Assembly (NCBI GenBank): GCA_963699545.1
Contig: CAVOUE010000006.1
Span: forward strand, 352,001 to 416,000
From: Nitrospirota bacterium
GTDB lineage: Bacteria; Nitrospirota; Thermodesulfovibrionia; Thermodesulfovibrionales; UBA9159
DNA length: 64,000 nt
Direction: 5' to 3'
The notes beneath the pieces were generated by a model that saw only the letters and a list, made by a program, of their open reading frames with translations, did no database searches and was not told the DNA's origin. Positions 49,717-53,026 of the stretch are shown in pieces. A program made the translations under genes and the position numbers. Each line of letters begins with the position of its first letter. The stretch's first letter is position 1.

Positions 49717-50226
49717 ATGAAGCCAATAAAGATGACCAAGGCAATGCTGCCAAATCTTCCTAATGAAGTTTTCGACATGTTTATCACACAAATAAATGAC
49801 ACCGACTCAAGCCCCTTTGATTCCATGCTCGGTGGCAGATGGTTTTACTATTTTGGAGAACTTACTATTGAGGCGTTCAATCAACTCCGGTGGATAAGAA
49901 CCACGCTTTCCTTCAAGGAGGCAATCTTTCATCCAACTTCGGGTAGCGACATCGATAGACTTGTCCATTATTGCAAACTTGAGGGCAAGCCGATAGCCAG
50001 GGCACTTTATCCAGGGTATCCCCCGGATTCCCCAGCCCGTCTCGCTGGGATCAAAGAAGTTATTATGAATACAGGACGGCTCCCTGCACCCATTGTAGCC
50101 ATAAGGACAGACAACGGCATCAGGGTTCTTGACGGTTGCCACAGGCTTGCCGCTGCTGTGTCTTGTCCGAACCCAGAAGATATACCTCTTGATGTATGGA
50201 TAGGCGAAAGACCAGAAAATAAATGA
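49717..50226 (+). CDS. Cassette-borne protein with ParB/Srx-like C-terminal motif
   Basis: LPAPIVA...VLDGCHRLAAA; stop codon followed 7 bp later by an attC. Confidence 0.65.
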   Translation: MKPIKMTKAMLPNLPNEVFDMFITQINDTDSSPFDSMLGGRWFYYFGELTIEAFNQLRWIRTTLSFKEAIFHPTSGSDIDRLVHYCKLEGKPIARALYPGYPPDSPARLAGIKEVIMNTGRLPAPIVAIRTDNGIRVLDGCHRLAAAVSCPNPEDIPLDVWIGERPENK

Positions 50227-50232
50227 AAGACC

Positions 50233-50320
50233 GTGCAACAAGAGGCTCGACCCGACTGTCGATAGCCCTGTGGCTTTCAGGTTACGCTTATTCTTCAGCG
50301 GGTCAGCCTTGGCGTTGTGG
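50233..50320 (+). other. Integron attC recombination site (complete)
   Basis: R'' GTGCAAC-5 bp-L'' GCT(C)GACC-CGAC...GCG-L' GGTCAGC-6 bp-R' GTTGTGG; L'' minus the extrahelical C is the exact complement of L'. Confidence 0.85.
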
Positions 50321-51268: not shown

Positions 51269-51293
51269 CACTTATAAGGCCCCCCGCTGTCAA

Positions 51294-51800
51294 GAGAAAA
51301 AGCGTTCCTAATCGGAAATCAGAATAAAGACATTTCCTTAATGTTCTTCAGATTGCCGGTGAGTTCCGACTTGGTTTCCGAAAGCGGCGTCAGATCAATA
51401 TCTGCACCAAACACTTATCGAGGCTCGATAGCCGGTCAGCACGGAACAATGTATCAATTCCGTACTGCCGACGACAGTGGAGAGACCAATCGGTCTTGTT
51501 CTCCACGGCCTGGAAACAATTCAGAACCCTTATACCGTCCTCATCAAAGGTCTGGTTCATCCCGACTAATCGGGATCCTCCAGTTAGTATCAGGCTCGGG
51601 TAAGGGGCAGAACCTGTAACAATCTTTTATGTCTTATAGAGACCGGGCGTCCTAATCAAAAAAGATAGGCGCCGGGTATCGCATTCCATGATGCCCTATC
51701 CATGATCGAAGCCATATACAAAGGCATGTTCTAAAGAGCATCCGTCGGACTTAACCCTAATGGCGCCAGTTAGACGCAACAGGCTCACCCGGTCCCAGCC
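51294..51800 (-). ncRNA. Candidate bridge/seek RNA in the non-coding right end (boundaries unknown)
   Basis: ~0.5 kb without a credible ORF downstream of the recombinase; repeated GAGCCT..TGG and TTGAT..GACG scaffold units; segments matching target and donor sequences. Confidence 0.65.
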
Positions 51801-52844
51801 TTATTTCGCAAAGAAGACTTCTGGATGAAACACCTCTTTTCTTTTCAGGATATGATAGGCAGCCCTCGCAAGCTTATGTGCCAAAATGGTCAGGGACTTC
51901 GCCTTGCCGTGCTTCCTTGCCAGTTTGTCCCGATACTTTACCGCTTCGGGGTTTCTCCTGAGGAAAAGAACGGCTGCTTCTGAGAAGGCCCATTTAAGAT
52001 GTGCATTGCCGATCTTCTTGCCCGAGGTGCCGAGTTTCTTGCCTGCCGACTCCTTGGCGGATTTAACAAGTCTGCAGTATGAGACGAAATCCTGCACTCT
52101 GGGGAAGCGGTCGATATCGTGAATCTCATAGAGAATGACCAGGCCGAGGATTCTTCCTATACCGGGTATGGAGCGAAGACGGAAATAGGAATCGGCATCA
52201 TCGACCTTTGCGATAAGGGATATCTCATGTTCAACACGGTGAAGCAGTTGATCATAGTGGTCTATGAGGCCAAGATCCAGTTCGATGCTCTTTTGGACAC
52301 TCATGTCGGTGAACCGTTCGGCCAAGCCTTCGCGGTTGCCTTTCTTTCCGATATTCTTCCCTATCTCCGGAAGGTTGTATTGATGATTGGTGTTTTGCAC
52401 ATGGGCAAGGAGTTCGGCCCGCTTGCGGACAAGGTGCAACCTTCTTCTCAAGAGATCCCTCGTGGACCGCATTTCGGAAGGGTAGACATACGCCATAGGC
52501 ATCATGCCGCCCCTTAGCAGCACCGCTATCTTATGAGCGTCTACCTTGTCGTTTTTGGCTTTGCCTCCGTGGATGGCTTTCATGTACAGGGCATGGCCCA
52601 GGACAAACGGGATATTCTCCTTATTGCAGAGATCGGCGATCCAGTACCAGGTGAAGATGCATTCTACGGCCACGACAATGTCCTCACGATACGGCGCGAT
52701 AGTCTTAAGGAAGATGTCGGGATTTGTTTTGATGTCCCGGTGCAGAACGATTCTTCCCTCCTGATTGAGGATGCAAAGGTACATGGTCTTGGCATGCAGA
52801 TCGATTCCGCAAGAAAATTTGTGCTGCTTGGTGTAAAATCTCAT
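51801..52844 (-). CDS. IS110-family DEDD recombinase/transposase
   Basis: AGGAGG RBS; GIDLH, VAVE, KNDKVDA, SIPGIG, ESAGK, GNAHLKWAF; intact 347 aa. Confidence 0.95.
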   Translation of the reverse strand: MRFYTKQHKFSCGIDLHAKTMYLCILNQEGRIVLHRDIKTNPDIFLKTIAPYREDIVVAVECIFTWYWIADLCNKENIPFVLGHALYMKAIHGGKAKNDKVDAHKIAVLLRGGMMPMAYVYPSEMRSTRDLLRRRLHLVRKRAELLAHVQNTNHQYNLPEIGKNIGKKGNREGLAERFTDMSVQKSIELDLGLIDHYDQLLHRVEHEISLIAKVDDADSYFRLRSIPGIGRILGLVILYEIHDIDRFPRVQDFVSYCRLVKSAKESAGKKLGTSGKKIGNAHLKWAFSEAAVLFLRRNPEAVKYRDKLARKHGKAKSLTILAHKLARAAYHILKRKEVFHPEVFFAK

Positions 52845-53026
52845 TTGAGGCCTCCTATGGGAAAAGGTTTTGGGTCCCTGAATCATACCTGCTTCGGGTA
52901 TGGTTCAGGGGGGCCTTAATGAGTATCAATTAAATCCGCGGGACGGGCAATGGCCCGCCCGTGATTTAACGCGTTGGACGGAACTGGGAAAAGAAAGGAG
53001 AACAGAAGACCCAGTGCACGTGTTGG

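Follow-up and report, generated by a model that had tools for sequence, protein, structure and literature searches.

A probable bridge (seek) RNA gene in an IS1111-type insertion sequence located at an attC-like site of a Nitrospirota genome

The window analysed here is a 64,000-nucleotide stretch of DNA from a Nitrospirota bacterium. Between positions 49717 and 53427 it carries small cassette-like genes arranged in a short array, with attC-like hairpins between them (an unknown 169-aa ORF, a 67-aa ORF, a pair resembling BrnT/BrnA and a 116-aa ORF), and the array is flanked by tilS-like and bioB/aroB-like genes. One of the array genes was matched to BrnT by Pfam, and the BrnA match lay below the Pfam cut-off. 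Since no integron integrase above cut-off was found in the genome, which is 87% complete, the sites are named attC-like rather than attC. The search of Rfam returned only a sub-threshold match to RNA-OUT (22.2 bits against 41), lying on the attC-like hairpin at 50177-50250.

An insertion sequence (IS) of 1.66 kb was located within the array, on the minus strand at 51269..52928. The genome holds the element a second time on a different contig (G000:C3:424884-426546), with 100% identity and other flanks, and this copy served to define the ends; the stretch common to both copies runs over 1663 bp from 52929 to 51267, with a TG core at the left end (52927-28) and at the right end (51269-70). The transposase (recombinase) gene (51801..52844, minus strand) encodes 347 aa counted from MRFYT and has an AGGAGG ribosome-binding site upstream. 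Its product matched PF01548 (DEDD_Tnp_IS110, 1.9e-14) and PF02371 (Transposase_20, 1.4e-19) in Pfam, and the NCBIfam model NF033542, "IS110 family RNA-guided transposase", with 203.6 bits (cut-off 140). The non-coding DNA of the element amounts to 534 nt downstream of this gene against 85 nt upstream, which is the layout of the IS1111 group.

At the left end (52908..52926, minus strand) the tip ATACTCAT (52919-26) is followed by the subterminal inverted repeat TAAGGCCCCCC (52908-18), and at the right end (51271..51293, minus strand) a -35-like TTGACA (51288-93) is followed by the subterminal inverted repeat GGGGGGCCTTA (51275-85) and the tip TAAG (51271-74); the two ends read T-TG-ATACTCAT-TAAGGCCCCCC and GGGGGGCCTTA-TAAG-TG-TT. 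The repeats are 11 bp long, within the 7-17 bp of the IS1111 group, and are offset from the core by 8 nt on the left and 4 nt on the right. Based on the DEDD transposase, the 3' non-coding layout and the 11-bp subterminal repeats, the element was assigned to the IS1111 type of the IS110 family, as this type is defined in the text of Siddiquee et al. (2024; PMC11187229). As far as can be judged from its sequence it has the defining features of, and is an ordinary member of, a known type of RNA-guided IS. The TTGAC of the right end is kept in all 44 aligned homologues. Once the ends are joined, TTGACA lies 18 nt from GATACT (52922-27), a candidate -10 box, and the two may form a junction promoter after circularisation, for which the text of PMC11187229 provides a precedent in ISEc11.

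Both copies in this genome, as well as about 45 junctions of homologues, read x-TG-[IS]-TG-TTRRRY, in full x-TG-ATACTCAT ... ATAAG-TG-TTRRRY; insertion is site- and orientation-specific, without a long target duplication. From these junctions the target was identified as the R'' box of attC-like hairpins, with the insertion point between T-TG and TTRRRY. The R''-like box GCTTAAC is cut by the element, its halves lying at 51262-68 and 52927, and the rest of the split hairpin was found at 52930..52980 on the plus strand (TTAAATCC...GATTTAA, with the R'-like GTTGGAC). The flanks together reconstitute the hairpin, which has a DNA fold of -16 kcal/mol (z -3.63); bounded by GCTTAAC and GTTGGAC, it has the shape of an attC site that was hit in its R'' box. 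Among the homologous loci, the core at the right junction is GG or AG, with the left core still TG, in L014, L016, L018, L022, L039 and L067, and also in L045 and L058, which suggests tolerance of mismatches at the first base of the core and may be a clue to the point of strand exchange.

Homologues were collected by a scan of species-representative genomes (79 loci, transposases 59-96% identical) and by a metagenome scan (80 loci listed out of more than 560, with 68-89% identity among the matches listed), to which plasmid-borne relatives from Vibrio campbellii and Pseudoalteromonas were added (53-55% transposase identity). Many of the loci belong to MAGs labelled Nitrospirota or Thermodesulfovibrionia, and others are distributed over many phyla. 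The element was matched in 96 of the 390 genomes of the host's class.

The original prediction had noted three GAGCCT..TGG units on the minus strand of the non-coding tail, at 51766-86 (unit 1), 51580-97 (unit 2) and 51407-26 (unit 3). All three are present and conserved in homologues, and every string that it listed was located on the minus strand within 1-2 nt of the position given for it. The GAGCCT..TGG pattern by itself is not enriched in the window (8 occurrences where 5.1 are expected, a count equalled or exceeded in 11 of 100 shuffles); the units are not attributed to chance because three copies occur within 380 nt on one strand and are conserved. Counted by pattern matching in assessable loci, that is, those with 520 nt or more downstream of the gene, all three units were present in 106 of 138 homologous loci (in 54 of 70 for the initial set), and several of the loci missing a unit are interrupted or oddly spaced copies. 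The plasmid relatives show the same RNA layout, which together with the 106 loci makes the three units a feature of the clade and not a peculiarity of this copy. Three GAGCC..CTGG-like motifs were also seen in the 3' tail of a distant element of the IS110 family on a Pseudomonas aeruginosa plasmid (L148, NZ_CP093017.1), the transposase of which is 33% identical, and GAGCC may recur more widely as a scaffold motif among the guide RNAs of IS1111-type elements.

That the non-coding tail specifies a bridge (seek) RNA was borne out by folding, by covariation within helices and by covariation between guides and DNA, and the minus-strand segment 51363-51796 is probably the RNA gene of this IS1111-type element. 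The predicted fold of the non-coding region has -197.9 kcal/mol (z -4.59 against shuffles), and no Rfam family covered the region. In RNAalifold alignments of 34 sequences for unit 1 and 30 for the remaining tail, compensatory changes were found in four helices, namely the unit 1 closing stem, a long-range helix, the unit 2 stem and an inner donor helix. For the guide tests, the loop strands and both junctions were taken from every complete element, and the fit of each RNA to its own DNA was compared by permutation with its fit to the DNA of other elements; related elements are treated as independent in these permutations, so that the tail counts given below are not true probabilities.

Unit 1 occupies 51639..51796 (minus strand) and is closed by the stem GGGACCGGG (51788-96) / GCCCGGUCUC (51639-48). 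This stem covaries, one example pair being CG in 13 sequences, AU in 11, GC in 8 and GU in 2 (RNAalifold, 34 sequences). The 5' strand contains the putative right-target guide GUUGCGUCUAAC (51769-80), and the 3' strand the putative left-target guide with core and handshake bases, UCUUUUUUGAU (51655-65). Over 66 distinct insertions, the 5' strand (antisense) followed the right target with a z of 4.19 (1/20000 permutations), and the 3' strand (same-sense) followed the left target with a z of 3.49 (9/20000 permutations). Per-position identity to the right target, counted from the core G, was 1.0,.95,.98,.68,.76,.45,.62,.52,.36 and.26, the values after.52 being at background level. Natural retargeting was apparent in L006 (GCACAAC with GTTGTGC), L053 (GUCGAAC with GTTCGA) and L062 (GCAUAAC with GTTAT), and also in L112. 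Based on this covariation and on the matched unusual boxes, unit 1 was assigned as the target-binding loop, in which ..GCGUCUAAC on the 5' strand reads the right target in antisense and the 3' strand reads the left target in the same sense. In the two copies of this genome the fit of the guides to the insertion sites is no more than moderate: the right-target guide fits them at 7/9 and 5/9 bases, and the left-target guide fits them little past UUG/UUUG. The ideal unit 1 target was not enriched in the same genome (21 matches with at most 3 mismatches; the reversed control gave 37).

Unit 1 had originally been read through the TGTTGC that follows its GAGCC. This string does occur at 50235-40, in an unoccupied attC-like site, but it is not the guide, since ..GCGUCUAAC, in antisense, and the 3' strand are what reads the target; in unit 2, the T after GAGCC that had been counted as core is a paired stem base. 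The unoccupied site itself (50230-50250, minus strand) reads GAGCCUCU-TG-TTGCAC and satisfies the T-TG-TT requirement of the element; 6/9 of its bases match the right-target guide, and the GAGCC at its start is a coincidence.

The remainder of the RNA, 51363..51613 (minus strand), was folded into a putative donor-binding multiloop domain closed by GUUCUG (51608-13) and CGGAAC (51363-68), a helix of 6 predicted pairs of which 3 show compensatory changes on both sides (RNAalifold, 30 sequences). Inside the multiloop, in order, are the unit 2 arm, the single strand 51513-25, the inner donor helix (CAGGCCG, 51506-12 / CGGCUAU, 51428-34, minus strand), which covaries, the unit 3 strand and a hairpin. 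The unit 3 strand (51407..51426, minus strand) reads GAGCCUCG-AUAAG-UG-UU-UGG, in which AUAAG (51414-18) would be the left-donor guide, UG the core and UU a 2-nt handshake; AUAAGUGUU (51410-18) lies within it. The pentamer of unit 3 is identical to the right-end pentamer of its own element in 85 of 96 distinct elements (62 ATAAG, 18 ATAGG, 4 ATACG and 1 ATAGA), and in the plasmid relatives both pentamers are ATATG. Among the 11 mismatches, seven place an RNA G opposite an A of the end, which is compatible with G-T wobble, and none an A opposite a G, an asymmetry that is expected if the unit 3 strand pairs with the bottom strand; a single reverse mismatch occurs, in the transposase-less deletion derivative L135. 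The match between unit 3 and the right end was not reached in any of 20000 permutations in an earlier test.

The opposite strand of this loop, UCUGAAUUGUUUC (51513..51525, minus strand), is the putative right-donor guide, oriented antisense to the sequence of the left end, G-ATACTCAT... Over 57 distinct pairs of guide and left end it was complementary at a mean of 6.46 of 11 positions (z 4.18, 1/20000). The match is weak in this copy, at 6/11 positions, and clear where left ends are altered, as in L039-41, L051 and L052. On this comparative evidence 51513-25 and the unit 3 strand, placed around a covarying helix, constitute the donor-binding loop, in the form of a multiloop. A multi-loop that carries the donor-binding bases is ascribed to many IS1111 bridge RNAs in the text of Durrant et al. 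(2024; PMC11208160).

Unit 2 is a hairpin (51526..51607, minus strand) with the stem CCCCUUACCC / GGUAUAAGGG and the loop strands GAUACUAAC (51583-91) and GACCUUUGAUG (51542-52), and forms the first arm inside the donor multiloop. Its stem covaries at CCCCUUACC/GGUAUAAGGG (UA 16, CG 10; 30 sequences), and the GCCU of GAGCCU pairs with the AGG of AGGAC (UA 18, CG 8). The hairpin has the full scaffold of unit 1, GAGCC-UG-NNN(N)-CUAAC-UGG ... UUUGA(A/U)nGGAC, and its 5' strand, which served as the anchor in the count, was present in 120 of 138 assessable homologous loci. These features mark unit 2 as a paralogue of the target loop, in which only the constant motifs CUAAC and UUUGA have been kept. 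It may serve as a scaffold, a structural or recombinase-docking arm and not as a guide, a role that is held loosely.

The conservation of CUAAC and UUUGA exceeds what a plain structural arm would need, and it is conceivable, if unlikely, that unit 2 is a duplicated target loop kept across a wide clade as a functional third loop that binds nucleic acid, whether a second class of site, the second GTT box of the folded attC, a regulatory nucleic acid or some other partner. Consistent with this, the scaffold (GAGCC..CUAACUGG, UUUGAnnGGAC) is complete in those 120 loci and also in the 53-55% identical relatives, the loop is constant in length while 3-4 of its bases differ between lineages in a guide-like manner, and in L006, L014 and L053 the box beside AAC is altered in unit 1 and unit 2 alike. 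In L062, L030, L037 and L035, however, the two boxes are unlike. The unit 2 strands had no relation to the target flanks of the 66 distinct insertions (z -0.32 and 0.80), with an identity to the right target of only.08-.20 immediately after GTTAG. None of the 66 insertions appeared to be directed by unit 2, and at most 2 of them match 4/6 variable bases. The site predicted from unit 2 was not enriched in the element's own genome (21 matches against 19 for the control), and a crude scan of the RNA for a partner column of the variable bases gave no diagonal. Nor can unit 2 read the donor, because its variable bases change while the ends of the element stay constant. If the reading of unit 2 as a third loop were true, the RNA would be a guide of three specificities and may recruit a third recombinase dimer.

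The original prediction went further and divided the RNA into three modules, in which unit 1 would address the target, unit 2 the donor, and unit 3 together with 51451-59 the junctions formed by insertion, for example for excision. Matches of 9/9 bases to both junctions exist. The right-junction copy in unit 3, ATAAGTGTT, has the look of a functional match, covaries with the right end and occurs in the 64 kb only at 51410-18 and 51267-75 (2 matches against 0.10 expected; 0/100 shuffles reach 2). However, unit 3 belongs to the ordinary donor loop as one of its strands and is already needed as the only left-donor guide, which leaves it no part as an extra module. The left-junction copy AATTGATAC was likewise found, at 51451-59 and 52923-31, but it lies in the loop of a non-conserved hairpin, which differs or is missing in the close relatives L003-L006, and its occurrence is compatible with chance (2 matches against 0.35 expected; 6/100 shuffles reach 2). 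The TTGAT..GACG strings described after each unit were found at about 51648-59, 51536-47 and 51388-98, the third of them within a non-conserved hairpin. The empty-target match ATTGTT(A/T) is present at 51617-23 and 51515-21.

As to unit 2, its TGATACT, which had been taken as the guide to the left end, is found here, and TGATAC is the commonest variant (about 20 of the 136 homologues with a unit 2 5' strand); it is nevertheless lineage-specific, most homologues having unrelated bases instead (more than 20 other sequences) while their left ends still read TGATACT. The TATAAG that had been equated with the right end is a stem strand, which pairs and covaries with CCCCUUA. Covariation of the segments with targets and ends across homologues was thus seen for units 1 and 3, which track the target and the right end, and not for unit 2, which tracks neither. 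In the study of IS621 excision (PMC13626964), this reaction works through the same two loops, with substrates spanning both. The three-module reading is highly improbable and was largely refuted by the comparison of homologues.

The copies of the junctions find an explanation in the handshake guides of IS621, in which, as described in the text of PMC11208158, one strand of each loop runs 2 bases past the core and pairs with the partner DNA after strand exchange. The same-sense strand of unit 1 is LT-UG-AU, in which AU corresponds to bases 1 and 2 of the left end, and that of unit 3 is AUAAG-UG-UU, in which UU corresponds to bases 1 and 2 of the target's right side; because the core and two handshake bases are included, each of these strands is a literal copy of a post-insertion junction. 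The handshake UU and AU fit the junctions, with RNA and DNA bases both invariant and hence without a covariation signal. By analogy, the handshake principle of IS621 would hold here as well, as a mirror image, which agrees with the strand order of IS1111 RNAs being reversed. Since guides that span junctions are the published principle, mirrored, no dedicated excision module would be needed. Finally, that the matches are due to chance or are relics in a tail without RNA function has next to no probability: every single match is short, but the blocks are conserved across transposases 53-96% identical, the helices carry compensatory changes and the guides covary with the DNA.

The anatomy of the RNA, the covariation of its helices and that of its guides with DNA were observed here, and from them the following mechanism is proposed. 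The RNA at 51363-51796 would follow the published logic of two specificities as a mirror image of IS621. It would be transcribed from the junction promoter after circularisation and bound by the transposase. The 3' strand of each loop would be a same-sense copy of the left-hand DNA, the core and two bases of the future partner, and being same-sense would pair with the bottom strand. In the target loop (unit 1), GCGUCUAAC would guide to the right target and ..UUUU-UG-AU to the left target; in the donor loop, the multiloop closed by GUUCUG/CGGAAC, 51513-25 would read the left end and AUAAG-UG-UU of unit 3 the right end. Unit 2, structurally paralogous to unit 1, would form a hairpin arm of the donor multiloop.

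Several derived forms of the element were encountered in the homologue set. MITE-like deletion derivatives without a transposase (L132, G199:C112; L133, G181:C142; L134, L135, L136 and L122) have the left end joined to the final 150-400 nt of the element. Solo right-end fragments with varied truncation points are numerous in related genomes. The possibility that TGATAC of unit 2 acts as a pseudo-left-end and creates mobile mini-modules was considered and rejected, as the starts of these fragments vary (query 1209 to 1446); in view of the varied starts and the unrelated upstream DNA, the fragments were regarded as decay products. In L009:3545-4313 (= L137, G159:C4) a partial copy lies directly behind a full element and begins within the right-donor guide strand, with the junction ATAAG-TG-TTTCTAGG.. 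From its sequence this arrangement was interpreted as an insertion into the RNA gene of another copy, between AAT-TG and TTTC of a look-alike target, with later loss of the duplicated left part; the ATTGTTT motif of this look-alike is also present in the window at 51515-21. In L008:3828-4966, about 1.1 kb of foreign DNA interrupts the RNA gene after unit 2, near the start of the right-donor guide.

With the seekRNA or bridge RNA of the IS1111 group (ISEc11 and ISPa11, as described in the texts of PMC11187229 and PMC11208160) the present system shares the DEDD transposase, the subterminal inverted repeats, an RNA downstream of the gene, the strand order of the target loop, the donor multiloop and the -35 box in the right end. 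The strand order given for IS1111 seekRNAs in the text of Siddiquee et al. (PMC11187229) has the match to the top strand 5' and the match to the bottom strand 3'. The non-coding region is larger, about 500 nt against the 145-170 nt of the long seekRNAs described in those texts, and the unit 2 hairpin, placed after the target loop and before the donor strands, is additional in comparison with the running texts of these papers. On the same basis, the single sentence of Durrant et al. was all that was found in the literature on a three-loop or multi-loop IS1111 bridge RNA.

The IS1111-attC group (ISKpn4, ISPst6 and ISPa25) is alike in its insertion at one end of attC sites, attC-like ones in the present case, in one orientation under the direction of a seekRNA. 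According to Table 1 of PMC13604230, the target of ISKpn4 ends in ..AATTGTTAG, the same R'' end as here, whereas ISKpn4 inserts between GAA and CGAATTGTTAG, about 11 bp from the insertion point between TTG and TTAG that is used here. By its insertion point the element is therefore not an ISKpn4-type member of this group. Among the plasmid-borne relatives, no named IS1111-attC member more than 55% identical was found. IS621, in the texts of PMC11208158 and PMC13626964, is alike in having two loops that each read both strands with a 2-nt core overlap, and would be alike in its 2-nt handshake and in using the same loops for excision. It differs in that the RNA is encoded here at the opposite end of the element, the polarity is mirrored with the junction-spanning strands same-sense, the core is TG instead of CT, and a multiloop serves as the donor loop.

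The analysis provides a comparative decoding of a probable IS1111-type bridge RNA in an uncharacterised and widespread clade, found in MAGs of Nitrospirota, Binatia, deltaproteobacteria and gammaproteobacteria and on plasmids of Vibrio, Pseudoalteromonas and Alteromonas. Unit 2, the conserved paralogue of the target loop, may be of interest for engineering. Same-sense copies of junctions in the tails of IS110/IS1111 elements would be ordinary features of the guides and not signs of extra modules. For attC-like sites, the junctions reveal a second position of insertion, which is the R'' box.
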